Shown in pieces: positions 3,085-43,600 of a stretch of DNA of 64,000 nucleotides (its first letter is position 1; the number at the start of each line of letters is the position of its first letter). The stretch lies in the NCBI GenBank assembly GCA_032718475.1, contig JAUCBJ010009060.1, positions 72,065-136,064 of the forward strand, given 5' to 3'. This stretch comes from Nemertoderma westbladi. Lineage: Eukaryota; Animalia; Xenacoelomorpha. The notes below the pieces were generated by a model. The model searched no databases. It worked only from the letters and a program-made list of their open reading frames with translations, and had not been told where the DNA came from. The position numbers were made by a program, and so were the translations under genes.

Positions 3085-3140
3085 GTGCAGAATTTCAACT
3101 CATTTAAATTAACCGCTACAAATTAATTGCATTTGTCTGT

Positions 3141-17055: not shown

Positions 17056-17126
17056 AAGGGAGGGCAAGGGTGGACGGAAGACTCGTGAGCCTTTCTTATG
17101 ATTTGTGATTTATTTGAATTATATTT

Positions 17127-17365
17127 ATATTTAGTAAGTTTTGTATTCTGGAAAACTCATATTTAGTAAAACTTATATTTAGTAAAACTTATATTTAGTA
17201 AAACTTATATTTAGTAAGACTTATATTTGTAAAACTTATATTTAGTAAGACTTATATTTTGTAAGAATTTATATTTTATATTTGTGATTATTCCGAACTT
17301 ATGCAATTTATATTATTCCGAACTTATGCAATTTATATTGTTCCGAATATTATGCAATTTATATT
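17127..17365. repeat. AT-rich 16-bp and 25-bp minisatellites in BEL 3' UTR (counterpart 34380-34620)
   Basis: ATATTTAGTAAAACTT repeats and TTATTCCGAACTTATGCAATTTATA repeats; copy numbers differ between the two elements. Confidence 0.75.
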
Positions 17366-17926
17366 TTATAAGCAGTATTTGTATTTACAGTGAAATAGAA
17401 AGTAAGAGTAGATGGAAGACTCGTGGGCCTTTCTTATAGTTTCATTTGTAAAGTGTTATATTTTGTATTTAGAAAGTTTTATAGTCAGAAAGTTTTGTGC
17501 TTAGAAAGACTCATATTTGTAATTATTCCAAACTTATGCAATCTACATTTAGGTACGAAAGTATTTGTAATTACTTGAATTTATGCAATATTTGAGATGC
17601 AATAGTAGATGGAAGACTCGCGAGCCTTTCTTATTGTTTTCATTTATTTGTATTTGTAATTGTTTGAATTTATGCAATATTGAGATGCAATAGATTTATA
17701 TTGGTGAATTTAATTTAGATTTATATTGTACTTACTTAGTAAAGCCTTAAATACGTAAAGTTTGAATTTGTAATTATTTTTGTATCGAATCATTACGTAG
17801 AAAGGAAGTATTATTTGAAATTTAATTGTAAATATGTAAGTACGCCCTAAGTATTCTATAGTTTGATTGATTATTGGTGAAAACCGTATATTTTATGCAC
17901 GATAATATCCTGTTTTCATGGAGCGG

Positions 17927-19816: not shown

Positions 19817-20622
19817 GTAGGAATATGTTTTACTGAACTACGGTTCGGTAGGACTAAAGTTATTTGAAAATTTTGTATTTTGAGGTAAAAATTTATATTT
19901 GATTAGCTAAGTGCTAATTTTTTGAAATAAAATTTGATTTGAACCGCGTGTAAAATATTTTGGAATTGAATACCGGTGTTTAAAAGGGTTTAAATACCAT
20001 ATTGTACCGGTACAAAATTTTCGTAAAGTAAAACCTAACTCTTTTGTTTTTCAGGATTCAGAACTCATTTCTAGACTGTAACGGGAGCAAGACCGTGTTT
20101 AGCAAGTTTGGGAGATAGATAACTCAACAACTTTGGTTGGGAAAATCGCGCTTCGTCCGCAACGTTAAAAACGGAAAGGTTCACGTCCGGTTTGTATCTG
20201 GGAATCTGTTTTTCTGGAGAATTATTGGAGTGGGTGAGTTCGAAAAGTTGCATAAATAAGTTAGGCATTACCGTATTAGTTAAAATTATTGTGGGTTCCA
20301 CTGTCTCAAGTATTTATGCATTCCGTATGATTTCTTTGTTCATTGCTGAATTAGTCCGTATTATTGTATTTAATTTACCTTTTGATAACGCATATCGTTA
20401 TCCGATTTATTTGTTATAAAATTGGCCGCTAGGCTAATTTTATTATATACTTATTCCGTGACATTTATTTGCTGTAAAATTGGCCGTTTAGGCTAATTTT
20501 ATCCATCTGCTATAAAATCGGCCGGTAGGCTAATTTTATATGACTGTAATTAGTACCGTTTAGATAAACTACGGTAAGTTTGATACTTTGACACTCACTT
20601 TACTTGACTTACAACTACCGAA

Positions 20623-23600: not shown

Positions 23601-26600
23601 ATCACGGGAGAAGTTTAATTACCTGCTTCAAACGTTGTCAGGAGAACCTAAACGTTTGGCAGAGACCTTCGTTGGTGTACCGGACGCCTTCGAACTAGCG
23701 TACGATCGTTTAACTTCGATATACGGAGGTACAGTCAGTATGGCCAGGTCAGTAATAGAGGAACTCTGTAAGGGAGGGGCTATTACTAAACCCGTCGACT
23801 TATTAAAACTGGCTGACGAGATAAGGAACGCTATCACTACTTTAAGATCCATTGGACAACTTGACTACGGGAATACCCCTACAGTCCTATTAAAGATCAT
23901 AGGACGACTCCACCATCGACTTCGTCGGGAGTGGAGAAAGATCGAATACCAGCGAGAAGAGCGGGGTGGATTCTTAAAACTGGAGGATGTGTACCTTTTG
24001 ATATCCAGGGAGGCAGTAGTAGAAACTCGATCCAACTACACTGACCAGCACATCGTGGCAGAAGGAATCACATTGCCATCCTCCAACCGGCAAAAACCCC
24101 AGACAACATCCACTAAGACGGCCACTTACACCACACCAACGGAATCACGACAATTCTCGGACGGTAGTAGGGTATCTGCGCCCATTGGGATAAAACAGAC
24201 GAGACAACAACTCAGTACCGACTTCAGCGGCTGCCAATACTGCGAGCATCTAGGCAAGCGGTATATCGGTCACAAGTTGAGGGGTTGTCGACAGTTTCGC
24301 GAGTTGAACTCGGAAGAACGACGGCTGCAGATACGGCCACTGGACTCTTGTTGGCGGTGTACGCGACACGGACACGTTCGCAAGGATTGCCCAAATACCG
24401 ACACTTGTCCATCCTGTGGACGCAACCACGACGGTCTGCTCCACACAGACAGCCACACGCCGACAAAACGCTTCGCCAGAGAACACCCGGAAGCAGCAGC
24501 GAGATGTGATGCGGCCTACAGAAAACGAGAATCGAAAACGACTCCAACCTTCGTGACCCATATTGAGGATTGCTTCTCAGAACAATCCGGATCGTCGGAC
24601 GAAGAGTTAGAAGACGACGACGAATATTCCAATGGAGACGAACAACCGTCGATCGCGCTTCTGACCACTGACCAACTGAAGGGATTCAGTGTAATCCCGA
24701 TTAAGATTACTGGCACAAAGGGGAGTAAGAGAATTTACGCGATCCTTGATTCAGCCTCATCCCACAGCTATGTGGACGAAAAGATAGCTGACGTCGTGAC
24801 GGATCTCAAACAAGGTAAGCGCGTCAGTTACACCGTGAGTAGTATGCACGGACAGCGTGCAATACCAGTGACACGAGTCAAGTTAAACTTAGACTCTCTT
24901 CTTCCGAAATCGCAACACAGCGAGAGGGAGAGGTCTTTGTTACCCTTCAAGGATTTGACCTTTGCGGCCACCAAAGACTTTAGTAACTTACTAGGTCCGG
25001 TCCCAGAACAATCCTTGGAGGACCGTAAGTATTTCAGACACCTTGGTGTACCCGAATGTCCTGTCAATTATAGATCGGTAGCCATGCTGATCGGGACAGA
25101 CCAATTCAACCTACACCAAGTGTGGGAAACCAGACCATCGGCAGTTGTAGCGGGAAACGCATACGCCTGCAGAACGCCGATAGGGTGGTATACTCGAGCG
25201 CCTGTGCGCACACTAAACGTAAGTGACGAGGAAGACGATGTACAAAGTACATGTAGTTTACTAACTACAAATTCAATCCATTCCTTTTCACACGATGTGG
25301 ACCATACTACACTACAGTCGACAAAACATGACAGACGTGTAACTAGTATGATAAGTAGTCACAAGGAGCAGCTAATCCACAAGGTGAGTTTAGAACTTGG
25401 GGAGAAGACGAGTCAGCTAGAGATTCCATCGACGACAGATGATAGGCTTGCGAGTCTACCTACCCCAACAACCTCAACAATACCCATCGATATCGATGAT
25501 GACGTGTTGAGAAATCATCAAGTGGAACAAGCTGCACTGGACAAAGAATTAACGGAGAAGACTATCAGGTGGTTAGAACAAGATACAGCTGAACCTGGTA
25601 GCTACGAACCTTGTATGTCGGAACAGGAGAAACAAGCTCTGAAGATCATGGAAGATACTATCCGCCAGACGAAAGACGGACATTATGAGGTGGGGATGTT
25701 ATGGCGTAGCCAAAGTCCTAAACTTATAAACAACTACCCACTGGCTTTAAGACGTCTACACTCAATACGGCAACGTCTATTAAAGGACGAGAAAGCCCAT
25801 CTGCAGTACAACACTCAGATGGAGACGTATTTGACTAAGGGATATGCTATCCGAATGACTAACCCAGAGATAGTGACTAACCAGACATACTACCTGCCAC
25901 ATCACTATGTGAGACATCCCGACAAACCAGATAAAGTACGTGTAGTCAATGATTGTGCGGCTCTATTTGAGGGAATGTCCCTCAATAGTGAGTTGATGGA
26001 TGGACCAAACATGAATAATTATCTTATGGGGGTGATTATGCGCTTCCGTCAGCGTCAAGTAGCCTTTACTTGCGACGTTGAAGCGATGTTTCACCAAGTG
26101 AAAGCGTTAGAGCGAGACAGAGACAGTTTGCGGTTCCTCTGGTATCCGGAAGGAGACTTAAGTCTACCACCAGCGACTTACCAAATGCAAGTTCGCGTTT
26201 TCGGTGCCAGAGACAGCCCAAACTGCACGATGTACGCCCTAAAACAAGCCGCTAGAGATCAGAAACACCTATATGACCCAGAGATAATTAGGATTGTGGA
26301 GCGTGACTTTTACGTTGACGACGGTTTACAGAGTTGCGACACAGTAGAACGTGCTACAACAGTAGCACATCAATTACGGGACTGCTTAGCGGGCGGAGGT
26401 TTTAACCTCACCAAATTCGCCTCAAACAGTGCCGAATTAGTAGACTCATTCGGAACGACTGAGCGTGGAGGTGGTGACATAGACCTAGAGTTCGAACCAC
26501 TACCGACGACCAAGGTGTTGGGGCTCTTTTGGGACCCAAACACGGACAACTTCCGAGTGAAGGTGAGACTGGACAGTCAAGAGAACACACTGACAAAGAG

Positions 26601-29600
26601 ATCATGCTTGTCAAAATTGAGCCGATTGTTCGATCCGTTAGGATTCATCAGTCCAGTGATACTGCAAGCCCGCATTTATATGCGCAGTATTTGGAAGGTT
26701 GGACTAACATGGGACGAGCCGATCTCATCAGACCAAGTGGACTTATGGAAGACCTGGGAGGCGGAATTATCTTCGCTAGAGGATTATTCCATACCCAGAG
26801 TTTACTTTCCATTACAAACTACATTTCCTGACAACTTGGAATTACATTGTTTTTCTGACGCCAGTGACAACGGTTTTGGTGTGGCAGCGTACTTGCGCAG
26901 ACAAGTAGACTCAGAAGCATTCGATGTTTCGCTCATTACTTCTAAGGCAAAAACAATGCCTACTAAGTATATGACGACACCACGAGCTGAGCTACAAGCC
27001 GCAACCCTGTCAACCACCATCGTGAACCTTATACAGACAGAATTACAGTCAAGTTTACAGATATTTTATTGGACTGACGCGACGTTGGTTTTATTTTACA
27101 TAAACAACGACACACTTGAATTCAAGACATTCGTAGCTAACCGTCGCGCAGAAATTCTAGACCGTTCAATAAAAGAGGATTGGCGACATTGTCCCGGACC
27201 ACAAAACCCAGCTGATATTGCGTCGCGAGGAATGATGCCCGAGGAATTCTGTAAACCGGAAAACAAAGAATTTTGGCAACACGGACCCCAATTCTTGCAG
27301 AAATCGACACAAGATTGGCCTCCGTTATACGACAACAAATCTAATACTATCCCTAAGGACGCCGAAATCAAGAAACCAAAAAAGGGGAAGGCAAAGAAAA
27401 AGACGACGGCGACAAAACTCAAGAAAAAACCGAAGGCGAAATGGAAAGATATAACTTCAAAGGTCAAGAGAGGAAGACTTGCGAGCCTTTCTACACCAGA
27501 CATATCGCCAGACGGTCAACCAGACACGTTACTAGACGATCAACCAGACGTTTTGCCAGACATATCACAAAATGTTCTACCAGACACTAGTGACATACTG
27601 ACAAACAGTAAAGCCGCAGTTTCCCTATTGGAGCGGCCTTCTATTGACAAACAACCAGATGCGTTACCAGACGTATCACCAGACACATTACTAGACGGTC
27701 AACCAGACGTTTTGCCAGACATATCACAAAATGTTCTACCAGACACTAGTGACATACTGACAAACAGTAAAGCCGCAGTTTCCCTATTGGAGCGGCCTTC
27801 TATTGACAAACAACCAGATGCGTTACCAGACGTATCGCCAGACACGTTACTAGACGGTCAACCAGACGTTTTGCCAGACACGTCACTAGATAATTCGCCG
27901 GATGTTCCGCGAAACATTTTACCAGACATGTCACAAAATGTTCTACCGGACATTAGTAATGTATCGACTAACAGTAAAGCCGCAGTTTCCCTATTGGAGC
28001 GGCCTTGTATTGACAAACTACCAATTTTGACACACTTGAGCAACCATAAGCATGGTGAAACCTCATGTATTACAGATGTGGGTAGTACCTACGCTAATGT
28101 AAATACAGGTGTTACTTTGCGCTCAAGAGACATACCGAACTTGCAACCTATGGTGAGACCTGGGATTAATGTCGGCAGAAAAATAAGTTTACCGAAACCT
28201 GCTGACCCCATAGAGTTCAAACCACCATTAACGATCGACTTACAAAGTACCGACAATCAAGGTAAGAAGACGAAGAAGGACAAATTACTTGTAGACCCGG
28301 ACGGATCAACAGTCAACAAGGGAATACTTACCGGCGGACCCGTGGGCCCTTCTAGTAATTCAAAACCTTCCAAAATCTCCATTGACTTACCTGATGACGT
28401 CACAAATACTCACATCGACCGGATTGTAAACTTAACAGACTCTTGGACAAACGCTTGCCGAAAATTAGCGTGGATTGTACGTTTCGTACAATACGTTAAA
28501 GGCAAACGTGACTTTACACGTCGACTTACATTGGCTGAGATTGACAGGTGTGAGATTAAATTAATTCGCCATTACCAACTGCGATATTTCGCGCGCGAAT
28601 TCACATCTATAAATCAAGGTCAACCAATCAAGTCGTCACCAATACTGAGTTGGAGTCCGATTATTTATAATGGCTTAATTTGTCATAAATCACGGCTTCA
28701 AAACATTGACTTTAACACAAACTTTAGATACCCAATAATAATACCCCAACATCACAAACTACAACGTGCAATGATACTGGACGCACATTTACATCTGAAA
28801 CATGCTGGAAGACACCACTGTCTTTCTTACTTACGTACAAGATTTGTATTGATTAGACCTAGTAAAGCGTTAAGTTCAGTGACACGTACGTGTATTATTT
28901 GTAAAAAGGTACATTCTAGAATAGGTACCCAAGAAATGAGTGAACTACCACAAGCACGACTTCAAGCATTCAGACCACCTTTTACAGAGACTGGAATTGA
29001 TTGCTTTGGTCCCATACATACGAAACGTGGACGTATACTAGTAAAACGCTGGGGACTGATTTTCACATGTATGTCCAGTAGGGCAGTTCATATTGAACGT
29101 GTGATGGATCTTTCCACCAACGCGTTTATACTAGCACTGCGGCGATTTATCGCTAGACGCGGACTAGTAAAATGCTTGTACTCAGACCAAGGGACAAACT
29201 TTGTTGGTGCTCGGAATGAGATTGCTAGAGCTTTTAAGAAATTAGATCATGATCAAATCTCGAACGAACTACAACCTCACAAGATTGTTTGGAAGTTTAA
29301 TCCTCCAGATAGTCCTTGGAGAGGCGGAGTCTGGGAGAGACTGATTAGATCTATAAAGACAGCCATGGCAAAGGTCATTCCAGTAAACCACATATTGACA
29401 GACGACCAACTGACAACACTGTTTGTTGAAATCGAGGCAATACTAAATACTAGACCAATAGTATTAGTACCCGATGACAAACAATCTCAGTTTGCTTTGA
29501 CACCGGCACACCTGCTTATGCAGGCACCGACCACATTGACACCTATTTCTATTCCAATAGAAAGCGACAGCTACGGTAGAAAAGCGTGGAAAATCACGCA

Positions 29601-29922
29601 ACTACTGGCTAACAAATTCTGGGAAATATGGCAAAACCATTATTTGCCCTCTATTTCTGCCAGAACAACTTGGTATAATAACACCCGCGCATTAAAGCCG
29701 GGAGATCACGTGCTGTTAGCGGAAGTGAATCTAAAAAGACGCTTCTGGATAACAGGTGTAATTTTAGCCACACATCCATCTATGGATGGAGTGACAAGAA
29801 CTGTGACGGTACGGACAATTGACGGTCGTACAGTAGACAGACCGACTCAACGTCTCGTACTTCTTGAAGAGACTCATAACGAGTCTGGAGACTACAAATC
29901 TCCACCTAATACTAGTAAATAA
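20623..29922 (+). CDS. gag-pol: BEL/Pao gag-pol polyprotein (gag, aspartic protease, RT, RNase H, integrase)
   Basis: PPKFSG...W..F gag motif; three BEL-type knuckles (CQYC..H..C, CWRCTRHGHVRKDC, CPSCGRNHDGLLH); protease AILDSAS; RT YLPHH, DVEAMFHQV, FYVDD; RNase H LHCFSDAS, PRAEL, WTDA, NPADIASRG; integrase HHCC, GIDCFGP, SDQGTNF, GGVWER. Confidence 0.98.
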   Translation: MSDKQDYTKNTQTDYDSCDGDKSAAEEQQGKTREPTEPTPCASPVHPTGVPDAVVRGDGRTEDFLTVPQPRYRETDMVSSVGSQESVVRSVGGYMAHITRSIGEGQRILDGLTAPMSRFEFYTLQVRVQSKVYKSVDNLVGLQDLARQRQDMDTQLRILEKLMIAREKLIQFKSTIRQIQQEQADQLLGESVSDELLQPEEEQELYRLDGQLKHLTDHLRMCGEDVGDWETVPEYTRETSPVRIESAPGILNQSLVSIRSEINEVSMVTSEVARQQQQFYRQQHEMEEQTQLLMIQTAVEEEKIRVANVARISHLQEQAELEAAEMERLELDIAQQAAAAELAQRTATAELERQTAAAAAAAELERQTEAAELERKRLVSEARVEMKTRQIKAQQAIRQAEFEAQQQQTEQREKEVKLRFELEKRARELAETKENLDLLARDRSMRSRDGHDLDQIEVRHRQIQERLKEGSIGAPGRERQLVKDLCQRFPQVTPMFAPVTTKEPVSIAGSSDISPIHGATEHRFVIPDKFTPPRATSSPIPKVKVSNPPITDRSSLLTGPALLTTKQVSPPSTPKPVTHYAYPMTFRPTRPVDSNAVIRPPVQFTSQSTTSRKTCEPTEQRRPVDTRPFNQFTSQSTTSRKTCEPTEQRRTVDTRPFNQCTSQSTTSRKTCEPTEQRRLVDTRQFNQRASQSTTSRKTCEPTEQRRLVDTRQFNQFTSQSTTSRKTCEPTEQRRLVDTRQFNQFTSQSTTSRKTCEPTEQRRLVDTRQFNQRASQSTTSRKTCEPTEQRRSVDDVTKRNVRIRTTQRTRAHRPPYPDDSSTSSESDYPKREVFRTGAADEYKRERSDNSFIDNPPQNTPTQKALQPTDAISTQQFADIMRPVVNKLAQIEERLEEVQTDSSRNTEFEHNRHPKEPQRPVPSKHPSYQGKAPRRDINQITNQGRETLNVAEEIAKFAARQGLPVQQPPKFSGSSKHWHTFVDYIESQIAVCAFTSREKFNYLLQTLSGEPKRLAETFVGVPDAFELAYDRLTSIYGGTVSMARSVIEELCKGGAITKPVDLLKLADEIRNAITTLRSIGQLDYGNTPTVLLKIIGRLHHRLRREWRKIEYQREERGGFLKLEDVYLLISREAVVETRSNYTDQHIVAEGITLPSSNRQKPQTTSTKTATYTTPTESRQFSDGSRVSAPIGIKQTRQQLSTDFSGCQYCEHLGKRYIGHKLRGCRQFRELNSEERRLQIRPLDSCWRCTRHGHVRKDCPNTDTCPSCGRNHDGLLHTDSHTPTKRFAREHPEAAARCDAAYRKRESKTTPTFVTHIEDCFSEQSGSSDEELEDDDEYSNGDEQPSIALLTTDQLKGFSVIPIKITGTKGSKRIYAILDSASSHSYVDEKIADVVTDLKQGKRVSYTVSSMHGQRAIPVTRVKLNLDSLLPKSQHSERERSLLPFKDLTFAATKDFSNLLGPVPEQSLEDRKYFRHLGVPECPVNYRSVAMLIGTDQFNLHQVWETRPSAVVAGNAYACRTPIGWYTRAPVRTLNVSDEEDDVQSTCSLLTTNSIHSFSHDVDHTTLQSTKHDRRVTSMISSHKEQLIHKVSLELGEKTSQLEIPSTTDDRLASLPTPTTSTIPIDIDDDVLRNHQVEQAALDKELTEKTIRWLEQDTAEPGSYEPCMSEQEKQALKIMEDTIRQTKDGHYEVGMLWRSQSPKLINNYPLALRRLHSIRQRLLKDEKAHLQYNTQMETYLTKGYAIRMTNPEIVTNQTYYLPHHYVRHPDKPDKVRVVNDCAALFEGMSLNSELMDGPNMNNYLMGVIMRFRQRQVAFTCDVEAMFHQVKALERDRDSLRFLWYPEGDLSLPPATYQMQVRVFGARDSPNCTMYALKQAARDQKHLYDPEIIRIVERDFYVDDGLQSCDTVERATTVAHQLRDCLAGGGFNLTKFASNSAELVDSFGTTERGGGDIDLEFEPLPTTKVLGLFWDPNTDNFRVKVRLDSQENTLTKRSCLSKLSRLFDPLGFISPVILQARIYMRSIWKVGLTWDEPISSDQVDLWKTWEAELSSLEDYSIPRVYFPLQTTFPDNLELHCFSDASDNGFGVAAYLRRQVDSEAFDVSLITSKAKTMPTKYMTTPRAELQAATLSTTIVNLIQTELQSSLQIFYWTDATLVLFYINNDTLEFKTFVANRRAEILDRSIKEDWRHCPGPQNPADIASRGMMPEEFCKPENKEFWQHGPQFLQKSTQDWPPLYDNKSNTIPKDAEIKKPKKGKAKKKTTATKLKKKPKAKWKDITSKVKRGRLASLSTPDISPDGQPDTLLDDQPDVLPDISQNVLPDTSDILTNSKAAVSLLERPSIDKQPDALPDVSPDTLLDGQPDVLPDISQNVLPDTSDILTNSKAAVSLLERPSIDKQPDALPDVSPDTLLDGQPDVLPDTSLDNSPDVPRNILPDMSQNVLPDISNVSTNSKAAVSLLERPCIDKLPILTHLSNHKHGETSCITDVGSTYANVNTGVTLRSRDIPNLQPMVRPGINVGRKISLPKPADPIEFKPPLTIDLQSTDNQGKKTKKDKLLVDPDGSTVNKGILTGGPVGPSSNSKPSKISIDLPDDVTNTHIDRIVNLTDSWTNACRKLAWIVRFVQYVKGKRDFTRRLTLAEIDRCEIKLIRHYQLRYFAREFTSINQGQPIKSSPILSWSPIIYNGLICHKSRLQNIDFNTNFRYPIIIPQHHKLQRAMILDAHLHLKHAGRHHCLSYLRTRFVLIRPSKALSSVTRTCIICKKVHSRIGTQEMSELPQARLQAFRPPFTETGIDCFGPIHTKRGRILVKRWGLIFTCMSSRAVHIERVMDLSTNAFILALRRFIARRGLVKCLYSDQGTNFVGARNEIARAFKKLDHDQISNELQPHKIVWKFNPPDSPWRGGVWERLIRSIKTAMAKVIPVNHILTDDQLTTLFVEIEAILNTRPIVLVPDDKQSQFALTPAHLLMQAPTTLTPISIPIESDSYGRKAWKITQLLANKFWEIWQNHYLPSISARTTWYNNTRALKPGDHVLLAEVNLKRRFWITGVILATHPSMDGVTRTVTVRTIDGRTVDRPTQRLVLLEETHNESGDYKSPPNTSK
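22429..23000 (+). repeat. 84-bp coding VNTR in gag (7 copies; 3 copies at 7376-7612)
   Basis: 28-aa unit QFTSQSTTSRKTCEPTEQRRxVDTRxFN. Confidence 0.92.
27500..28020 (+). repeat. ~159-bp coding repeat in RNase H-integrase linker (3 units; 2 in copy 1)
   Basis: PDTLLDGQPDVLPDISQNVLPDTSDILTNSKAAVSLLERPSIDKQ repeated. Confidence 0.85.
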
Positions 29923-30520
29923 TTAGGAGTTCACAAATAGATTTCCACGTACCTGTACACCGTAGTAAGGACAGCGGTAGAATTCCATTGTCTTTATATG
30001 TGAACATTGAGGGTAGTACCCTTATGTGTCACATAGGAGCGGGATTTGTAGGTATAAGAAATGGAATTCTACTTGGAACTCACAATATTGAGACATTTTC
30101 GAAATTTTAGACAATCCATTTGGATTTGAAAAATTTTTAAATTTTCTCCAGTGAATAGATTTCAGGGTACAGTCGGGTGGAACTTAAAATTAGAGAAACA
30201 AGAGAGGAAGACTTGCGAGCCTTTCTTAAAAATTTTAATTAAATTTTACACGGTCTTGTTTCAATAAGTTACGTCAAAAAATAGACTCCCCTGTATTTAT
30301 TTCTAATTCTTGATTGCTTATTTTCTGATAATAGTTTGGGATCAAAAAGTGAGTATTTTAGACTCACAGCCAGTTTAGCCCAAATTCGTTTTTATTTCGG
30401 CAAAAAATTTTAGATAAGAAGCAGCGTGTCATTAAAGAAACCCTAGATCTTAGGCTATGGGTAGGAGGTTAGAGCGTTGTCGAGCCCAAAGGGCAGACGA
30501 AACTCTCACGTCTCCTCACA

Positions 30521-30552
30521 ACTAACTACAAACTCTGTTGTATTCCCTCTAG
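30521..30552 (+). promoter_or_regulatory. Putative splice acceptor for ORF2 subgenomic mRNA
   Basis: ACTAAC branch point, pyrimidine tract TATTCCCTCT, then AG ~30 nt before the ORF2 ATG; identical in copy 1 (14983-15014). Confidence 0.55.
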
Positions 30553-30583
30553 TAGTAATGATTATGTAACTACACCCCTAATT

Positions 30584-33500
30584 ATGGAGAAAGGGATACA
30601 AGGAGAGCCGAGATGGGGATATGATATCCAAGAGGAGGCAGCAGCGCCATTCGAAAGATTTGGAGCCAAGGATTATACTATATTCGGTATAAAAGAATTA
30701 TCGGAAAGTACAGCGAAACTCGCGAGAACTAAATATGACTCAAATGTATTAAAGAGAAGGCAAAACGCATTAAACGAAAGAATCGAAAGTTTGCGCCAAA
30801 CCTTCAACGAACTTTACCCGTACGACACTTTATGTGATACGGGAGATATTTGCGAAGACCCCGACACTGAAATTAGTCGTTTGTATCATACCATGCAATA
30901 CCTGAAGGCGCACGAACCTATGCCCGCGGTAAGAGATGAATTCGATGGAATGCATCTTTACAGACGAACTCGAGGGGACGATAGAGAAACCAAGGAAGCA
31001 TTTTCAGTTTATAAACTTTATTATCAATGCGGTTCTTGTATGCGCGAACAACGAAATGCGATTCCAATGCGTTTGAATAAGGAAAATCCCGAACCGATAT
31101 TGGCGAGGTGTTCGAACCATCAACAACTACGCTACCAGGAAGGAGGGTATCCTTTATCGAATCCATATCATTCATTTGCTATGACCGGACCAAAGGCGGG
31201 AGAAACTGTCATTTACCCACCTAAGGTTGTTGAACCCGATGTATTTGAACTTACGCTGGACGAGGCAAATCAGTCAACCCGCGAAAAGAAAGAAGCTCTT
31301 AGCCTATACAGAGCCTACAAGGCTTTCGAGAAAGGTGAGATGGAAGAATGGGGTGGAAGACTCGCGAGCCTACCTTGCCATTGGACGTCACACGATCAAA
31401 CTCCAGCTAAGGAGATGACACCGGAAGTTTTCGAGAGCATAAACTTTGCTCAAAACGTTATTCAGAGACTACAGATTGCATCCCCGGAGAGGACAAGAGA
31501 AATGCAACCGTATAGTACTTCAACTACGAAACCATTGAGTACGACACTCAACTTTCCTATTAGTATACCAGTCCGACAGGATACGACGTACGAAATACCC
31601 ATCGTGGATCATCCAGAAATCATTTCAAACTTGGAGTTTCTTCCTGCAGTTGTTTTCAGTGATATGAGTAAGATATATGATTTACGTAGACATATTACTC
31701 AAAAGGTCGTGTACAACGTTCCACCTCATATTCAAGACTTCAAGGAACTGGATAGAGCTGGTGCCGATATAGCTCCGAGTAATTTGAAGGGATATTTAAC
31801 CAAGACGATTCGTTTATGGATTGGAACCGGAACCTTCGAGTCGGATACAGATATTGCCGCGGATTGGCGAGGTAAGGTTATTAGCTTCGAAGATGATAAG
31901 GATATAGAGAAGATTTGGCAACCTTCGGAAGAATTGTTGGACGAATGGAATAGAACGTTTAGATCGTTTCAGGAAAATGGTTACATGTTTTACGATAACG
32001 AGGGCGGCAGTCATCAGCAGAGTTTGACTTCTAAGACTATACAGATTAGAGCGGCGGACGGAGTCTTGCACGTTTTCAGTAGACAGAGGAGCGACAAACG
32101 AATGCCGATACCTCCAGCGAATACAAAGCGACACCATCTTATCACCGACATAGTAAAGAAGATGGACCAAGCTTGTAATATTGACGCTAGAATGTTACCG
32201 AAGATGGTAAGAAACATGATTTTAGATAAAACTGTTGTAAAGATTGGATCAGGAGTAAGGGAGGACTTAATTAGCGACTTCGCCGGCATGACGGACAGCG
32301 ATGACCGACTACCGACACCTTACGTCGACACTCGACCTCTTATTTTGTGGTCTATAGAACAGGGATATTTTCGTGAGTATAATACTCAGAAGACTGGAAC
32401 TGGATACATTTCCTACCTGTTATTCAATTGGGATTATAAGGAAAATAAGAGAAACAAGTATATTGAAACTTATGGAGAAGGTGATACTCCAGATATGAGT
32501 GAGTTTGAATCACAGCTTAAATGGAGAGGATGCGTGTATTGGGCTATTACGTCACCTCCAAGAGCGGTCTTACAATATTATTTAGCAATAGAGTCGTCAG
32601 TGAATGTTTGCCTAATCGCCGACATTGTGTCTCGGACTCTCAAAAGACATCCACTTTGTCTCGGAGAAGATCATACTTTCTACATGGAAGGGAGAATTCG
32701 TACCGACGTGTTTAGACAATTCCTTGAACCCTTCTACAACTCCGACGCTCAGTGTAATGCCTTTACTCGAGCAGGATTTAGTATATTTCGAGACGTGTAT
32801 CTTCGCTGTGCGGGATCTCTTATCGAAAGACCATCTATGTTTACATTGTTACCCTATGAAGGAGAACGTATCGTGGAGATTACGGAAGAATCACGGCAGA
32901 CGCGCGCGCCTATCGGTCACCTTGGTGATGATTTCGAAGTAACTACTACGATCGCTGACGATCCTTTAGAGGAACTTCTTGAGATAGAAAGGAACCTCCC
33001 GAAGAAATCTCAGATGGAGATTCGACAACTTGAAGCAACAGATGCTATAGTTTGTATACAACCTTCAGATACCTACCAACCCATAGACCCAGATGATTAC
33101 GATTATAGTATGGGAGGAAGCACTCGACCGATTGGAGATCTTATATACGAACGAGTGTGGTACCCTGCCAATACGATGTGTAGTAAATGTGGCGTCGCTG
33201 GACATCATATGACAAAGTGCAGTGGAAAGCACATTACTACGACTCAGCTAATCTGTGGATGGTGTGGGGATCAAGGGTCTCATACCTTTTATACTTGCTG
33301 GAGATTTATGGCTCAATGTACTTATTGCAATATAAAAGGACATCGAGCATCTGAATGCCAACTAAGAGACATACCTTATGAACACGAATCTGTAAAACTC
33401 GTGAGGAAGTTATTTGATGAGTGGGAAGATTTAGCCGACGAACATGTATCGGCACAAAGAAGACGGTTTCCGATGAGAGCGCATCTCGGATTTTGGGCGG

Positions 33501-34309
33501 TAAATCCTCAAACGATGATGTCGGAAGGATATATCTCCGCTATGCCCCAATATGACGAACTTATCGAGGTAGTCGATATTTTGCCCCACGACAGCGGATT
33601 CCGAGTAGTGCGCGAGTATCTACTACAGATTCACCCGGATAACAAAAACACGTGGAATTTTCAGAAAGTCGTTAATCGCATTACGTATGGTGAATTCGAT
33701 CGTTTCCGAACTGAAAGGCGGAATAAAGGAGCTTGGTTAACCGTTGCATGGGCGTACCGAGCCGCGTTTTACCATAAACGTATACGAGCGAGCGTATTCG
33801 AGGAAGAAGAGGTCCTAGAGGCGACAAATATACCAGCCACTCCGGTTGCGCCGTCTGCACGTCACCCTCGGGAGGACGGACAGGGTAGGATCATACGGGT
33901 CCAGAAAGTGGGCCAACAATTAAAGAAAATTATTAATATAGAAGAACGCAAGGGAGTTGAGCCGACCATTCGAGTTACTCGGGATACGGTATCGCTTCCT
34001 AGAGAACCAGTAGGAGGATCGGGACATACACCAGCTGATCAACAGGGGGCGCAAGCTACTCTTGGGTCTGCGTCGTCCGCTTCTCGCGCGTTCCCAGACG
34101 TTCTACCAACTGTAGTGACAACTGATCGGTCACGAGGAATCGGTCGAGGTTTTGGGATGCCAAATAGACGAATTTGCGAGGAAATAGTCGCACCGTCTCT
34201 CAACGTCCAAACGAAACCAGTGACTCGCCCCACGAGTCCCATATCGCGAGCAAAGTCACCTGTGCGCAGTTTTCGAGGACGCGGCAGGGCTCGATCCACT
34301 AAGCGATAA
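30584..34309 (+). CDS. Accessory ORF2: DEDDy-type 3'-5' exonuclease domain + 3 CCHC zinc knuckles + RG-rich tail
   Basis: FYDNEG (ExoI), IQIRAADGVLHVF, LPKMVRNMILDKTVVKIGSGVRED (ExoII), YVDT, W...P....QYYLAIE (ExoIII); knuckles CSKCGVAGHHMTKC, CGWCGDQGSHTFYTC, CTYCNIKGHRASEC; no signal peptide or TM segment seen. Confidence 0.85.
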   Translation: MEKGIQGEPRWGYDIQEEAAAPFERFGAKDYTIFGIKELSESTAKLARTKYDSNVLKRRQNALNERIESLRQTFNELYPYDTLCDTGDICEDPDTEISRLYHTMQYLKAHEPMPAVRDEFDGMHLYRRTRGDDRETKEAFSVYKLYYQCGSCMREQRNAIPMRLNKENPEPILARCSNHQQLRYQEGGYPLSNPYHSFAMTGPKAGETVIYPPKVVEPDVFELTLDEANQSTREKKEALSLYRAYKAFEKGEMEEWGGRLASLPCHWTSHDQTPAKEMTPEVFESINFAQNVIQRLQIASPERTREMQPYSTSTTKPLSTTLNFPISIPVRQDTTYEIPIVDHPEIISNLEFLPAVVFSDMSKIYDLRRHITQKVVYNVPPHIQDFKELDRAGADIAPSNLKGYLTKTIRLWIGTGTFESDTDIAADWRGKVISFEDDKDIEKIWQPSEELLDEWNRTFRSFQENGYMFYDNEGGSHQQSLTSKTIQIRAADGVLHVFSRQRSDKRMPIPPANTKRHHLITDIVKKMDQACNIDARMLPKMVRNMILDKTVVKIGSGVREDLISDFAGMTDSDDRLPTPYVDTRPLILWSIEQGYFREYNTQKTGTGYISYLLFNWDYKENKRNKYIETYGEGDTPDMSEFESQLKWRGCVYWAITSPPRAVLQYYLAIESSVNVCLIADIVSRTLKRHPLCLGEDHTFYMEGRIRTDVFRQFLEPFYNSDAQCNAFTRAGFSIFRDVYLRCAGSLIERPSMFTLLPYEGERIVEITEESRQTRAPIGHLGDDFEVTTTIADDPLEELLEIERNLPKKSQMEIRQLEATDAIVCIQPSDTYQPIDPDDYDYSMGGSTRPIGDLIYERVWYPANTMCSKCGVAGHHMTKCSGKHITTTQLICGWCGDQGSHTFYTCWRFMAQCTYCNIKGHRASECQLRDIPYEHESVKLVRKLFDEWEDLADEHVSAQRRRFPMRAHLGFWAVNPQTMMSEGYISAMPQYDELIEVVDILPHDSGFRVVREYLLQIHPDNKNTWNFQKVVNRITYGEFDRFRTERRNKGAWLTVAWAYRAAFYHKRIRASVFEEEEVLEATNIPATPVAPSARHPREDGQGRIIRVQKVGQQLKKIINIEERKGVEPTIRVTRDTVSLPREPVGGSGHTPADQQGAQATLGSASSASRAFPDVLPTVVTTDRSRGIGRGFGMPNRRICEEIVAPSLNVQTKPVTRPTSPISRAKSPVRSFRGRGRARSTKR

Positions 34310-35180
34310 AAGGGAGGGCAAGGGTGGACGGAAGACTCGTGAGCCTTTCTTATGATTTGTGATTTATTTGAATTTATATTTATATTTGTGTTTATTCCGA
34401 ACTTAAGCAATTTGTATTGTTCCGAATTTATGAAATACGACTTATATTTAGTAAGAATTTATATTTGTAAGAATTTATATTTTATATTTGTAATTATTTA
34501 GAACTTATGCAATTTATATTATTTCGAACTTATGCAATTTATATTATTTCGAACTTATGCAATTTATATTATTCCGAACTTATGCAATTTATATTGTTCC
34601 GAATACTATGCAATTTATATCTTATAAGCAGTATTTGTATTTACAGTGAAATAGAAAGTAAGAGTAGATGGAAGACTCGTAGGCCTTTCTTATAGTTTCA
34701 CTTGTAAAGTGTTATATTTTGTATTTAGAAAGTTTTATAGATAGAAAGTTTTGTGCTTAGAAAGACTCATATTTGTAATTATTCCGAACTTATGCAATCT
34801 ACATTTAGGTACGAAAGTATTTGTAATTACTTGAATTTATGCAATATTTGAGATGCAATAGTAGATGGAAGACTCGCGAGCCTTTCTTATTGTTTTCATT
34901 TATTTGTATTTGTAATTACTTGAATTTATGCAATATTGAGATGCAATAGATTTATATTGGTGAATTTAATTTAGATTTATATTGTACTTACTTAGTAAAG
35001 CTTTAAATACGTAAAGTTTGAATTTGTAATTATTTGTATCGAATCATTACGTAGAAAGGAAGTATTATTTGAAATTTAATTGTAAATATGTAAGTACGCC
35101 CTAAGTGTTCTATAGTTTGATTGATTATTGGTGAAAACCGTATATTTTATGCACGATAATATCCTGTTTTCATGGAGCGG

Positions 35181-37077
35181 TATAGAATTATATTCTCTAA
35201 ATGCCGTGGATTTTCAAAATTTTATTTTATTCGAATTAACTTTGTAAAAGATTGCTTTGAATCCTCATTTGTATTTGTTATATCGCCTATCGGTCAAGTG
35301 GTTCAGTAGCTCAGTCGGTAGAGCGTTGGAAATTATATGTGTAGTAGGTATTGAGTTCGAATCCTAGTAAGTGCGAATTATTTTTTGTGCAGAATTTCAA
35401 CTCATTTAAATTAACCGCTACAAATTAATTGCATTTGTCTGTACCAATGAGACTGTAGTTATTTGATTGTAACCAATGTCGTGCAAGTTATATATTAGCT
35501 GGACCAATAGCTATCTTTAAAACCTTGTTAGAACCTATAGATCAATCGAGAATTTTCTCGATTGATTGCAGCACAAATTTGGTATAAAAGGGTGCGATTT
35601 GTTCATTAGTTATCTTTCTCATCTATGCTTCTCAGATTATCTTATCTTATCAATATTCTGTCGTGCTTAGTTTATTTCAGATTACATTGTATTATAATTA
35701 TATTTTCTGTAATAAAGTCAGAATTATCGCTAATCTGCTTTTCTATCTGTTTTACCATGGATTCACTACGGTGAACAAACCTAAGGGACAGGATGACCGG
35801 CTAGAGATCGGGCCGCAGCAATGAACGGGAACATCGGGGGAATGTAGACCAGAGACAACCCGCAATACCATCTTGAGTTATTCGCCCATCGCCTGAAAGG
35901 TTAGACAGCGTTCGATCCTTGCTACCTAAGTGTAAGACCAAAAGATCAAAAGGTAGAAGTAGTGACACGCTGTGAGCCTAAAATTACATCTTAGAGACTG
36001 TACTGTCTTGATTCAGGAAAAACCGCAGTAGACCTTCATATTCCTACGGGGGGGAGAGGGAAAGAGCGCAGGCAGATACTAGTACGCAGATAGGACGTAG
36101 GCACACCGGTACAAGGCATACACATTGGTTAGGGTGCAGCAAACTGTACGCCTAACTCTTGCTAAGTGCAGGTGTGTGTGCGACTATTTGTAGTACGACA
36201 GTGTCCATTGCATTATAACTTGTAGGCTAGGGGGGTTGCTGTGTTTTCACCTGAATTGGGATTGTACCGTTCAGGCGGTAGGGCAGTTTACAGCTAGGCG
36301 CAAATAAATTGAGGCTATTAGGGATACTAACATCTACCGTGTCCCCGCCAACGCCCTAATAGGAAGTTACCCGGACTACCTGGGTGACTAAAATTCTAGA
36401 TAAGAGCCAGGATAGCTATTAGTAACTGTACGCCTACAGTAGTAAACTAACACATCTCTTCTTAGTATCAGGGACCTGGTACCTAAAATTGCCGAATTCT
36501 GGGCGTAGCATTAACCTTATGCCTGAATTTGAGTCCTGGAAATACGCAAGAGGGGAAGGAACCTTATCATTCGTGAGTATTGGACCTACAAGTTACAAAA
36601 TTAGAATATTCGTAAAATGCACACCGTACCCAGTAATTATATATGTGAAGGAGCAAAACTGTTTTTGACCGTTCAGAATTAACACACGCGCGTTAGAAAT
36701 TATTTACACCTCAAAATATATAAAATTAACTTTCGTCCTTACTGTGCTTTGCCCGCTAGTTAGACATCTCCAAATCTCTGCCTGTACCTAGCTAGCGTCC
36801 CTTCGCCCAACCATATAAATCACACCGCGGCAAAGTATACGAGCCCTTTAGTCCGTCAGTGAGTCAGCCTGATTTTAGGATTCGCTGCGCGGGATTTTGT
36901 TTTATCGAAGTTTGTCTGCTCGTAGACTGTTTTCTGCCTCACCGGTTATAAGAGATCGATACTGCAATATATTCGCTTACTTAGAGTTTACTGTTTTGGT
37001 GAGAAGGTCGGATTTATGATTTGATTCACAAACTTTACAGTAGGATATTGCAGGTATTGTTACTGTCTCTTCGAATA
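35181..37077 (+). repeat. LTR3 (~1897 bp)
   Basis: Third direct repeat; similarity stops after ...CTCTTCGAATA. Confidence 0.88.
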
Positions 37078-37646: not shown

Positions 37647-40600
37647 CGGTTGTTATACACAACGACTATGGTCGTTATACACAAGGACTACGGTCGTTAT
37701 ACACAAGGACTACGGTCGTTATACACAAGGACTAAGGTCGTTATACACAAGGACTACGGTCGTTATACACAAGAACTACGGTCGTTATACACAAGGACAT
37801 CGGTTGTTATACACAAGGACTACGGTTGTTATACACAAGGACTACGGTCGTTATACACAAGGACTAAGGTCGTTATACACAAGGACTACGGTCGTTATAC
37901 ACAAGAACTACGGTCGTTATACACAAGGACATCGGTTGTTATACACAAGGACTACGGTTGTTATACACAAGGACTACGGTCGTTATACACAAGGACTAAG
38001 GTCGTTATACACAAGGACTACGGTCGTTATACACAAGAACTACGGTCGTTATACACAAGGACATCGGTTGTTATACACAAGGACTAAGGTCGTTATACAC
38101 AAGGACTACGGTTGTTATACACAAGGACTACGGTCGTTATACACAAGGACTACGGTCGTTATACACAAGGACTACGGTCGTTATACACAAGGACTACGGT
38201 TGTTATACACAAGGACTACGGTCGTTATACACAAGGACTACGGTTGTTATACACAAGGACTACGGTCGTTATACACAAGGACTACGGTCGTTATACACAA
38301 GGACTACGGTCGTTATACACAAGGACTACGGTTGTTATACACAAGGACTACGGTCGTTATACACAAGGACTACGGTTGTTATACACAAGGACTACGGTTG
38401 TTATACACAAGGACTACGGTCGTTATACACAAGGACTACGGTCGTTATACACAAGGACTACGGTCGTTATACACAAGGACTACGGTTGTTATACACAAGG
38501 ACTACGGTTGTTATACACAAGGACTACGGTTGTTATACACAAGGACTACGGTCGTTATACACAAGGACTACGGTCGTTATACACAAGGACTACGGTCGTT
38601 ATACACAAGGACTACGGTCGTTATACACAAGGACTACGGTTGTTATACACAAGGACTATGGTTGTTATACACAAGGACTACTGTTGTTATACACAAGGAC
38701 TACGGTCGTTATAAACAAGGACTACGGTCGTTATACACAAGGACTACGGTCGTTATACACAAGGACTACGGTCGTTATACACAAGGACTACGGTCGTTAT
38801 ACACAAGGACTACGGTCGTTATACACAAGGACTACGGTTGTTATACACAAGGACTACGGTTGTTATACACAAGGACTACGGTCGTTATACACAAGGACTA
38901 CGGTTGTTATACACAAGGACTACGGTTGTTATACACAAGGACATCGGTTGTTATACACAAGGACTACGGTCGTTATACACAAGGACTACGGTCGTTATAC
39001 ACAAGGACTACGGTTGTTATACACAAGGACTACGGTTGTTATACACAAGGACTACGGTCGTTATACACAAGGACTACGGTTGTTATACACAAGGACTACG
39101 GTTGTTATACACAAGGACTACGGTCGTTATACACAAGGACTACGGTCGTTATACACAAGGACTACGGTTGTTATACACAAGGACTACGGTCAACCAAGGA
39201 CTACGGTCGTTATACACAAGGACTACGGTCGTTATACACAAGGACTACGGTTGTTATACACAAGGACTATGGTTGTTATACACAAGGACTACGGTCGTTA
39301 TACACAAGGACTACGGTCGTTATACACAAGGACTACGGTTGTTATACACAAGGACTACGGTCGTTATACACAAGGACTACGGTCGAACCAAGGACTACGG
39401 TCGTTATACACAAGGACTACGGTCGTTATACACAAGGACTACGGTTGTTATACACAAGGACTATGGTTGTTATACACAAGGACTACGGTTGTTATACACA
39501 AGGACTACGGTCGTTATAAACAAGGACTACGGTCGTTATACACAAGGACTACGGTCGTTATACACAAGGACTACGGTCGTTATACACAAGGACTACGGTT
39601 GTTATACACAAGGACTACGGTCGTTATACACAAGGACTACGGTTGTTATACACAAGGACTACGGTCGTTATACACAAGGACTACGGTCGTTATACACAAG
39701 GACTACGGTTGTTATACACAAGGACTACGGTTGTTATACACAAGGACTACGGTCGTTATACACAAGGACTACGGTTGTTATACACAAGAACTACGGTCGT
39801 TATACAGTACACAAGGACTACGGTCGTTATACACAAGGACTACGGTCGTTATACACAAGGACTACGGTCGTTATACACAAGGACTCCGGTCATTATACTC
39901 AAGGACTACGGTCGTTATACAGTACACAAGGACTACGGTTGTTATACACAAGGACTACGGTTGTTATACACAAGGACTACGGTTGTTATACACAAGGACT
40001 ACGGTTGTTATACACAAGGACTACGGTTGTTATACACAAGGACTACGGTTGTTATACACAAGGACTACGGTTGTTATACACAAGGACTACGGTTGTTATA
40101 CACAAGGACTACGGTTGTTATACACAAGGACTACGGTTGTTATACACAAGGACTACGGTTGTTATACACAAGGACTACGGTTGTTATACACAAGGACTAC
40201 GGTTGTTATACACAAGGACTACGGTTGTTACACAAGGACTACGGTCGTTATACACAAGGACTACGGTCGTTATACACAAGGACTCCGGTGGTTATACACA
40301 AGGACTACGGTTGTTATACACAAGGACTACGGTCGTTATACACAAGGACTACGGTCGTTATACACAAGGACTACGGTCGTTATACACAAGGACTACGGTC
40401 GTTATACACAAGGACTACGGTTGTTATACACAAGGACTACGGTTGTTATACACAAGGACTACGGTCGTTATACACAAGGACTACGGTCGTTATACACAAG
40501 GACTACGGTGGTTATACACAAGGACTACGGTCGTTATACACAAGGACTACGGTCGTTATACACAAGGACTACGGTTGTTATACACAAGGACTACGGTCGT

Positions 40601-43600
40601 TATACACAAGGACTACGGTCGTTATACACAAGGACTACGGTCGTTATACACAAGGACTACGGTCGTTATACACAAGGACTACGGTTGTTATACACAAGGA
40701 CTACGGTCGTTATACACAAGGACTACGGTTGTTATACACAAGGACTACGGTCGTTATACACAAGGACTACGGTTGTTATACACAAGGACTACGGTTGTTA
40801 TACACAAGGACTACGGTTGTTATACACAAGGACTACGGTTGTTATACACAAGGACTACGGTTGTTATACACAAGGACTACGGTTGTTCACAAGGACTACG
40901 GTCGTTATACACAAGGACTACGGTCGTTATACACAAGGACTACGGTTGTTATACACAAGGACTACGGTTGTTATACACAAGGACTACGGTTGTTATACAC
41001 AAGGACTACGGTCGTTATACACAAGGACTACGGTCGTTATACACAAGGACTACGGTTGTTATACACAAGGACTACGGTCGTTATACACAAGGACTACGGT
41101 CGTTATACACAAGGACTACGGTCGTTATACACAAGGACTACGGTTGTTATACACAAGGACTACGGTTGTTCACAAGGACTACGGTCGTTATACACAAGGA
41201 CTACGGTCGTTATACACAAGGACTACGGTTGTTATACACAAGGACTACGGTCGTTATACACAAGGACTACGGTCGTTATACACAAGGACTACGGTCGTTA
41301 TACACAAGGACTACGGTTGTTATACACAAGGACTACGGTCGTTATACACAAGGACTACGGTCGTTATACACAAGGACTACGGTCGTTATACACAAGGACT
41401 ACGGTCGTTATACACAAGGACTACGGTTGTTATACACAAGGACTACGGTCGTTATACACAAGGACTACGGTCGTTATACACAAGGACTACAGTCGTTATA
41501 CAGTACACAAGGACTACGGTCGTTATACACAAGGACTACGGTTGTTATACACAAGGACTACGGTTGTTATACACAAGGACTACGGTTGTTATACACAAGG
41601 ACTACGGTCGTTATACACAAGGACTACGGTTGTTATACACAAGGACTACGGTTGTTATACACAAGGACTACGGTCGTTATACACAAGGACTACGGTTGTT
41701 ATACACAAGGACTACGGTTGTTATACACAAGGACTACGGTCGTTATACACAAGGACTACGGTCGTTATACACAAGGACTACGGTTGTTATACACAAGGAC
41801 TACGGTGTTATACACAAGGACTACGGTCGTTATACACAAGGACTACGGTCGTTATACACAAGGACTACGGTCGTTATACACAAGGACTACGGTTGTTATA
41901 CACAAGGACTACGGTTGTTATACACAAGGACTACGGTCGTTATACACAAGGACTACGGTCGTTATACACAAGGACTACGGTTGTTATACACAAGGACTAC
42001 GGTCGTTATACACAAGGACTACGGTCGTTATACACAAGGACTACGGTCGTTATACACAAGGACTACGGTCGTTATACACAAGGACTACGGTCGTTATACA
42101 CAAGGACTACGGTTGTTATACACAAGGACTACGGTCGTTATACACAAGGACTACGGTCGTTATACACAAGGACTACGGTCGTTATACACAAGGACTACGG
42201 TCGTTATACACAAGGACTACGGTCGTTATACACAAGGACTACGGTCGTTATACACAAGGACTACGGTTGTTATACACAAGGACTACGGTCGTTATACACA
42301 AGGACTACGGTTGTTACACAAGGACTACGGTCGTTATACACAAGGACTACGGTCGTTATACACAAGGACTACGGTTGTTATACACAAGGACTACGGTCGT
42401 TATACACAAGGACTACGGTCGTTATACACAAGGACTACGGTCGTTATACACAAGGACTACGGTTGTTATACACAAGGACTACGGTCGTTATACACAAGGA
42501 CTACGGTTGTTATACACAAGGACTACGGTTGTTATACACAAGGACTACGGTTGTTATACACAAGGACTACGGTTGTTATACACAAGGACTACGGTTGTTC
42601 ACAAGGACTACGGTCGTTATACACAAGGACTACGGTCGTTATACACAAGGACTACGGTTGTTATACACAAGGACTACGGTTGTTATACACAAGGACTACG
42701 GTTGTTCACAAGGACTACGGTCGTTATACACAAGGACTACGGTCGTTATACACAAGGACTACGGTGGTTATACACAAGGACTACGGTTGTTATACACAAG
42801 GACTACGGTTGTTCACAAGGACTACGGTCGTTATACACAAGGACTACGGTCGTTATACACAAGGACTCCGGTGGTTATACACAAGGACTACGGTCGTTAT
42901 ACACAAGGACTACGGTCGTTATACACAAGGACTACGGTTGTTATACACAAGGACTACGGTCGTTATACACAAGGACTACGGTCGTTATACACAAGGACTA
43001 CGGTCGTTATACACAAGGACTACGGTCGTTATACACAAGGACTACGGTTGTTACACAAGGACTACGGTCGTTATACACAAGGACTACGGTCGTTATACAC
43101 AAGGACTACGGTTGTTATACACAAGGACTACGGTTGTTATACACAAGGACTACGGTTGTTATACACAAGGACTACGGTTGTTATACACAAGGACTACGGT
43201 TGTTATACACAAGGACTACGGTTGTTCACAAGGACTACGGTCGTTATACACAAGGACTACGGTCGTTATACACAAGGACTACGGTTGTTATACACAAGGA
43301 CTACGGTTGTTATACACAAGGACTACGGTTGTTCACAAGGACTACGGTCGTTATACACAAGGACTACGGTCGTTATACACAAGGACTACGGTTGTTATAC
43401 ACAAGGACTACGGTCGTTATACACAAGGACTACGGTCGTTATACACAAGGACTACGGTCGTTATACACAAGGACTACGGTTGTTATACACAAGGACTACG
43501 GTTGTTCACAAGGACTACGGTCGTTATACACAAGGACTACGGTCGTTATACACAAGGACTACGGTTGTTATACACAAGGACTACGGTCGTTATACACAAG

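Follow-up and report, generated by a model that had tools for sequence, protein, structure and literature searches.

The env position of a BEL/Pao retrotransposon of Nemertoderma westbladi holds an intact gene, ORF2, whose central domain is predicted to be a DEDDy-type 3'-5' exonuclease. The element lies in a 64,000-nucleotide stretch of contig JAUCBJ010009060.1 (hereafter the window), with ORF2 between gag-pol and the 3' long terminal repeat (LTR). A low ratio of replacement to synonymous differences (pN/pS) indicates that ORF2 is kept by purifying selection, although the nuclease domain has been deleted from several copies. We propose that ORF2 is a selected accessory gene whose product would most likely act in trans as a counter-defence against host small guide RNAs, a reading to which we give a probability of about 0.4. 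The general idea of a nuclease as the third gene of an LTR element has been published before; the BEL/Pao carrier, the EXD2/WRN-like branch of the predicted domain and the evidence of selection are new.

An extra gene in the env position of a BEL/Pao element

The element is 19,151 bp (19.15 kb) long. Self-comparison of the window revealed a tandem LTR-body-LTR-body-LTR arrangement at 2871-37077, with LTRs at 2871-4760, 17927-19816 and 35181-37077. The intact copy and its decayed neighbor have the following features, all on the + strand.

17927-19816, +, 5' LTR of the intact copy, shared with the upstream copy as its 3' LTR; length 1890 bp, with TA...TA ends
20623-29922, +, gag-pol of BEL/Pao type; 3099 amino acids (aa), with 84-bp and 159-bp tandem repeats
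30584-34309, +, ORF2, the extra gene in the env position; 1241 aa from ATG to TAA, no internal stop
31028-31120, +, CxxC-x23-CxxH (aa 149-179), a possible zinc site in the N-terminal extension; pN/pS of aa 1-187 is 0.09
31916-32668, +, predicted DEDDy-type 3'-5' exonuclease domain, aa ~445-695; D471, E473, D561, Y666, E670
33179-33358, +, three CCHC zinc knuckles, aa 866-925, at 866, 891 and 912
33371-33583, +, conserved C-terminal motif past the knuckles, aa ~930-1000; common to three relatives and of no known family
34133-34309, +, basic tail with RG repeats, aa 1184-1241; missing from two of three relatives
35181-37077, +, 3' LTR; 1897 bp, its right end backed by a loose end at position 37078 of one public DNA run (X4)
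2871-19816, +, decayed upstream copy in tandem; gag-pol with frame breaks and a stop, ORF2 with a 1-nt insertion and a deletion

ORF2 starts 661 nt past the gag-pol open reading frame (ORF) and ends 871 nt short of the 3' LTR. Pfam detected in gag-pol, in order, Peptidase_A17 (E 1e-41), DUF1759, an integrase zinc finger and DUF5641, which is the BEL/Pao set, and the integrase is 35-41% identical to BEL integrases of metagenome loci. On the sequence of Pol, on which the classification rests, the element belongs to BEL/Pao (Belpaoviridae). An earlier note, made from the letters of this DNA alone, had reported an intact 1241-aa ORF in the env position within the LTRs of such an element, and our analysis confirms it. 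The ORF2 motifs named there were also all found in place: the nuclease motifs FYDNEG at residue 469 (D471, E473), IQIRAADG at 486, LPKMV at 538, VVKIGSGVREDL at 551 (D561), YVDT at 580 and YLAIE at 666 (Y666, E670), flanked by CxxC at 149, CxxH at 176-179, RGIGRG at 1184 and RGRGR at 1231.

Because ORF2 has no segment of transmembrane strength (the best 19-residue hydropathy mean is 1.38, at the ExoIII helix), it is not an env; Pfam detected no env family in it and called the knuckles weakly. Public DNA runs from three studies on one organism contained 0.46-0.64 of the words of ORF2, and thousands of variant contigs aligned to it, so the family is real and multi-copy.

Relatives and predicted fold of the nuclease domain

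A phmmer search with aa 340-990 of ORF2 against 1.84 billion representatives gave five hits. Three of them (P0004, P0006 and P0007; 558-648 aa, located on single ENA contigs of 3.0-9.4 kb) are remote relatives with 20-23% identity to ORF2. They share its layout of a nuclease-like domain, an acidic linker, three CCHC knuckles and the C-terminal motif, whereas nothing in them corresponds to residues 1-340 or to most of the RG tail of ORF2. A profile built from these three proteins alone scored 63.6 bits on aa 526-685 and 25.5 bits on aa 861-1000 of ORF2; with 2000 shuffles and the reversed ORF2 as controls, the best score was 7.0 bits and 711 gave any score. D471, E473, D561, D582 and Y666 are invariant in all four family members, while the last acid of ExoIII is Glu in two (E670 of ORF2 and one relative) and Asp in the other two. 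The remaining phmmer hits, P0003 and P0005, were dropped because they matched through generic knuckles only. Word-indexed homologue searches returned nothing for aa 340-990 or for the four-sequence alignment, and P0004 used as query found only itself. An Atlas search with the knuckle and C-terminal part of ORF2 gave a best similarity of <=0.78.

In the Atlas comparison of ESM features, 24 of the 30 matches of aa 420-720 fell in a PF01612 3'-5' exonuclease set (0.93). Foldseek with a fold model from the four-sequence alignment gave seven matches at E<=0.001, all of them EXD2 (best 1.5e-4). VIA-align with the same model also placed EXD2 at the top (Z 8.1, root-mean-square deviation 5.3, 109 aligned), followed by Rrp6, diDNase, RICE1, Pop2, polymerase proofreading domains, Exd1, Nibbler, RNase D, WRN, TbRND and Egalitarian; judging from titles and general knowledge, we take the top 22 rows to be DEDD/DnaQ-type nuclease domains throughout. 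The alignment profile search reached EXD2 at E 0.27-0.32 only, phmmer against the PDB gave no matches, and a single-sequence model of ORF2 had a predicted local distance difference test score (pLDDT) of 31.9.

The earlier note had placed the domain on the WRN/EXD/RNase D side of the DEDD exonucleases. The Atlas, Foldseek and VIA-align results and the acidic residues conserved in four of four members back this placement, and a DEDD fold, in a low-confidence model, is what was predicted for aa 445-690. We regard a DEDD (DnaQ-like) 3'-5' exonuclease fold as very probable for the domain as modeled: the superfamily assignment is well supported, and the EXD2 branch is assigned tentatively. As to the DEDDy signature, ExoI DxE, ExoII D and ExoIII Y are invariant and the last acid is E in ORF2; the model did not show whether these residues cluster in space. 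Catalytic activity seems likely, with less certainty than the fold.

ORF2 is under selection and its nuclease is repeatedly lost

We compared the two copies in the window over the shared parts of ORF2 (671 codons). There were 21 synonymous and 11 replacement differences, giving a pN/pS of about 0.15 (Fisher p 2e-7), which agrees with gag-pol (0.11-0.15 in three stretches). For aa 931-1075 the value was 0.03, and the linker (aa 756-860) is an exception with one synonymous versus five replacement differences. The nuclease region is missing from the upstream copy and was scored instead on variants in contigs from the public runs, using the best-supported 40 of 360, of which 26 lie in ORF2. Among these 26, 18 are synonymous, including 14 of the 18 in aa 183-755, where 33% would be expected for transitions (p 1e-4). 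The low pN/pS and the synonymous excess imply that ORF2 is maintained by selection on the lineage, and we conclude from these sequence comparisons that it is under purifying selection, like gag-pol. The evolution of ORF2 is thus non-neutral, a point on which the claims of the earlier note depended. In the public DNA runs, contigs of about 83% identity span 31669-32400 with 0-2 gaps, a finding that suggests a sister subfamily keeping the nuclease domain. Summed contig depth is lowest over the nuclease; this measure is unsuited to ranking regions within one gene and carries no weight here.

The upstream copy carries a 1717-bp out-of-frame deletion in ORF2 at 15592/15593 that removes aa 183-755 and with them the whole nuclease domain. 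The deletion junction is the start of a 487-codon frame (15592-17055) in which the knuckles and tail are kept and the nuclease is gone. Deletion joints were found in other copies at 30723>32756 (runs X1 and X4) and 30739>32868 (run X2). Three independent deletions therefore removed the nuclease and kept the knuckles, so the nuclease is probably dispensable in cis to single copies.

Comparison with known systems

The earlier note knew of no description of this architecture, and this claim does not stand. The available text of PMC5408684 describes DEDDy exonuclease ORFs (ORF3) in the env position of Juno and Vesta, two LTR retrotransposons of bdelloid rotifers, and offers the same guesses at their function. 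According to that text, DEDDy ORFs were acquired at least twice and are common to Athena/Terminon elements, their activity was not demonstrated, several kinds of nucleases recur in the env slot, and the proposed roles are 3'-end processing, a mut-7-like role in silencing, and dead RNA-binding forms. ORF3 resembles ORF2 in being an RNase D-like DEDDy protein encoded as a separate ORF in the env position, with a Glu-for-Asp change. It differs in that its motif is DEED, whereas here the change is at the last acid, and in that the portion of the source at hand mentions no triple CCHC knuckle; the two nucleases were compared by description. Furthermore, intragenomic variation of env-like and GDSL ORFs is reported there as neutral, in contrast to the selection on ORF2, and BEL/Pao goes undiscussed in this text. 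In the literature found, the DEDDy third genes reported in 2017 have no demonstrated activity or selection signal. The carrier of ORF3 is not BEL/Pao and is presumably Gypsy-like.

The PF01612 group (EXD2, WRN exonuclease, Nibbler/Mut-7 and Egalitarian) supplies the best fold matches and has the same order of ExoI DxE, ExoII D and ExoIII Y; however, identity is 12-16%, ORF2 stays below the Pfam threshold, the flanking domains are different, and these are host genes not borne by elements. In RNase D of Trypanosoma brucei (TbRND), the parts of PMC7797062 available report that both binding and cleavage of RNA depend on the C-terminal zinc fingers and that overexpression lowers guide RNA levels. 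TbRND and ORF2 have in common an exonuclease followed by tandem zinc fingers (CCHC-type in the PDB name), which in TbRND feed RNA to the active site, and ORF2 matches TbRND by its knuckles (E 1.6e-4) and by fold (Z 4.8). On the other hand, TbRND is a mitochondrial host enzyme with four fingers, and ORF2 has three knuckles past a long acidic linker; the resemblance is probably convergent.

Belpaoviridae share with our element a single gag-pol with BEL/Pao domains, LTRs and a third ORF before the 3' LTR (PMC8742986 and the available text of PMC3118150 and PMC13524379). The International Committee on Taxonomy of Viruses profile of the family (PMC8742986) lists env-like third genes only, lengths of 4.2-10 kb, LTRs of 0.2-1.2 kb and an 18-nt tRNA site, whereas the element here has 19.15 kb, 1.9-kb LTRs, no tRNA site and a predicted nuclease in place of an env-like third gene. 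Dada DNA transposons are also mobile elements with a DEDDy 3'-5' exonuclease, although as far as PMC3706591 could be consulted the domain is an insertion within a DNA transposase, lacks knuckles and is not part of a retroelement. A DnaQ-like domain is called a well-known accessory of LTR elements in the text available of PMC6338049, which PMC6431247 repeats. We found no BEL/Pao exonuclease in the open literature searched, where the word 'exonuclease' occurs 0 times in PMC3118150 and PMC13524379; one could be present in Repbase, in subscription journals or in the supplementary material of PMC5408684 and PMC3118150.

Whether animal retrotransposons use enzymes against small-RNA silencing is an open question, and ORF2 offers a case from a second LTR lineage that is intact and under selection. 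The natural deletion derivatives and the small, remote protein family make the question testable on one protein. Even a nuclease confined to processing RNA of the element itself would add a new accessory module to BEL/Pao.

Candidate primer and repeated 17-nt motif

Two further features of the element may bear on the function of ORF2.

18779-18789 (also 36037-36047), +, 11 nt in the LTR exactly complementary to 11 nt past the LTR; candidate self-primer
19817-19827 (also 4761-4771), +, primer-binding position, pairing with 18779-18789; not a TGG/tRNA-type site
20711-34883, 14 on + and 1 on -, the 17-nt motif GGAAGACTYGYRRGCCT; 15 dispersed copies in 9 distinct contexts

No TGG/tRNA-type primer-binding site follows the 5' LTR from 19817 onward. 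In a control for the 11-nt match, four of 5000 start points reached 11 nt. This site is a candidate self-primer of the Tf1 kind. Further pairing to the LTR end is possible, with a duplex of -32.4 kcal/mol, a figure given without a shuffle control. The leftmost LTR carries a substitution in the site.

Gag-pol, the spacer behind it (30206), ORF2 (31355) and the 3' untranslated region all contain the 17-nt motif. In the window it has 25 matches (5658-34883), all within the two element copies, where 0.01 would be expected; it was absent from 118 other BEL loci (371 kb). Its coding occurrences fall in two reading frames, others lie in non-coding DNA, and each element copy has one in reverse orientation. 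Its core is dyad-like, up to 12/14 self-complementary, and it is amplified within the 84-bp gag repeat. As RNA, the motif folds no better than shuffles. Rfam and ARAGORN found nothing.

Proposed function and alternative explanations

We propose that the three zinc knuckles would grip single-stranded RNA for the exonuclease, that the nuclease would act in trans on RNA, and that it may trim or destroy host small guide RNAs directed at the element, the last being the weakest step. The layout shared with TbRND suggests by analogy that RNA is the substrate and the knuckles are the grip. The recurrence of nucleases of several kinds in the env slot suggests the pattern typical of host-conflict genes.

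Several observations weigh against this proposal. Pfam PF01612 (DNA_pol_A_exo1) is not called in ORF2, and it is reached in one relative at E 0.2. The four-sequence fold model is of low confidence (mean pLDDT 35.5, predicted TM-score 0.36), and a Z of about 8 is close to the level that unrelated models reach. In the nuclease domain proper, six of the eight variants are synonymous (p 0.017), a small sample, and catalysis may be weakened by E670, where Asp is usual. No feature that we saw separates small RNAs from the element's own RNA as the target. Gag and Pol likewise work in trans, and hence deletion derivatives are unspecific for counter-defence. In the part of PMC5408684 available, a silencing-promoting role is expected to be selected against, and no clear link is reported between DEDDy ORFs and copy number.

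The nuclease could instead help replication: packaged via nucleocapsid-like knuckles, it would trim the 3' end of the element's RNA, for example the cut 11-nt self-primer. The lack of a tRNA-type site together with the exact 11-nt self-complementary primer candidate fits this role, as do the knuckles, which resemble those of retroviral nucleocapsid and Air2 in a profile search, and 3'-end processing is the first proposal of PMC5408684 in its available text. However, the TATA/AATAAA pair of the LTR lies ~430 nt upstream of the primer candidate, and ORF2 is separate from Gag, with no fusion; we consider this role possible, with about one chance in four. It is less probable that a weak or dead nuclease serves as an RNA-binding adaptor of the Egalitarian or EXD1 kind, localizing or shielding the element RNA. 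The Glu in ExoIII, the knuckles and the RG tail fit RNA binding, Egalitarian and Exd1 are among the fold matches, and dead DEDD forms are cited in the available text of PMC5408684. Yet the Tyr and three of the acidic residues do not vary in a family with 20-23% overall identity, and two relatives keep the canonical Asp. Dead DEDD forms usually lose catalytic residues, which also counts against an adaptor.

The 17-nt motif raises the idea that ORF2 binds it sequence-specifically and serves in anti-silencing or regulation, like VANC for the VANDAL transposons of plants. The motif is specific to the element, lies in two frames, in non-coding DNA and once in reverse, has a partly self-complementary core, and is amplified in a tandem repeat, as VANC targets are in the available text of PMC5735166; the N-terminal Cys/His motif of ORF2 is lineage-specific and under selection. 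But nothing observed ties ORF2 to the motif, which a host factor, Gag or integrase could bind, and Pfam found no DNA-binding family in the N-terminus of ORF2; such a role is improbable. Equally improbable is the most ambitious combination of these ideas, in which an EXD2/WRN-like knuckle nuclease would destroy PIWI-interacting or small interfering RNAs of the host, guided to its own family by the 17-nt motif. It would be the first anti-silencing enzyme of a BEL/Pao lineage and an animal retrotransposon counterpart of the plant VANC system, in an element that also primes itself without a tRNA. Proofreading of reverse transcription by the nuclease, permitting a 19-kb genome, is very unlikely. 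The element is about twice the 4.2-10 kb range of its family (PMC8742986), but the extra length consists of LTRs, tandem repeats and ORF2 itself, and the text available of PMC6431247 mentions no such gene in describing the larger Gypsy elements Burro and Ogre. Copies moreover diverge by 1-10% at silent sites, the nuclease is unfused to Pol, and several copies have lost it. That ORF2 is recently captured host cargo of no benefit to the element would agree with its repeated deletions; this idea is largely refuted by the selection data, with pN/pS equal to that of gag-pol. ORF2 is also a single exon without a close cellular relative among the 1.84 billion representatives, the ~83%-identical contigs span the nuclease with 0-2 gaps, and the 17-nt motif of the element is found within ORF2 too.

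Other BEL families

Scanning for the BEL integrase motif yielded 118 metagenome loci. The sequence beyond the motif extends for 1.5 kb or more in only 24 of them, for 2.5 kb in 9 and for 3.5 kb in 6. The nuclease profile had no match at E<=1 in any of the 118, only 9 of which extend 2.5 kb downstream, and the best-scoring integrases are ~40% identical to ours, with no close relative among them. Because the loci are distant and reach only a short way downstream, this result is no evidence of absence. When the ORF2 alignment was used to search for loci, neither metagenome nor viral contigs gave any, and integrase relatives were absent from viral contigs. Four long downstream ORFs at BEL loci were checked; three are a neighboring BEL gag or pol and one has no family. 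Head-to-tail BEL elements are present on two metagenome contigs (L022:1147-7090 and L054), where the second gag lies ~2 kb or less past the first integrase.

Structure of the tandem array and other features of the window

The 5' and 3' LTRs of the intact copy are 98.8% identical over aligned columns. LTRs usually end in TG...CA; those of this element end in TA...TA (2871, 37077), with both strands ending in ATA. The outer flanks of the tandem array do not match as a target-site duplication, and the middle LTR is a mosaic with alternating letters of the two outer LTRs. From the mosaic and the lack of a target-site duplication, we infer that the array is probably a product of recombination. Near the 5' end of the LTR (35297-35365 and the equivalents in the other LTRs) is a tRNA-like A-box/B-box sequence, for which ARAGORN and Rfam make no call; it could be a polymerase III promoter or an insulator. 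The in-frame tandem repeats of gag-pol are at 22429-23000 (84 bp x 6.8) and 27519-27880 (159 bp x 2.3), and their copy number varies between the window copies, the 84-mer having 2.8 copies upstream. CpG observed/expected is 1.11-1.26 in the element (20623-34309), undepleted, versus 0.73-0.78 in two flanking stretches.

Downstream of the element, an 11.6-kb satellite (37647-49264) consists of 531 copies of a 22-bp unit and gives rise to the artefactual long ORFs at 39269-49293. Another 22-bp array (52904-53868) is followed by 19-, 30- and 32-bp arrays. Broken ORFs at 61106-63490 encode a reverse transcriptase (E 1e-22) together with a Ulp1 protease domain (E 3e-9) and are probably another retroelement. 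Upstream of them, at 59556-60728, is a perfect inverted repeat of 444 bp.

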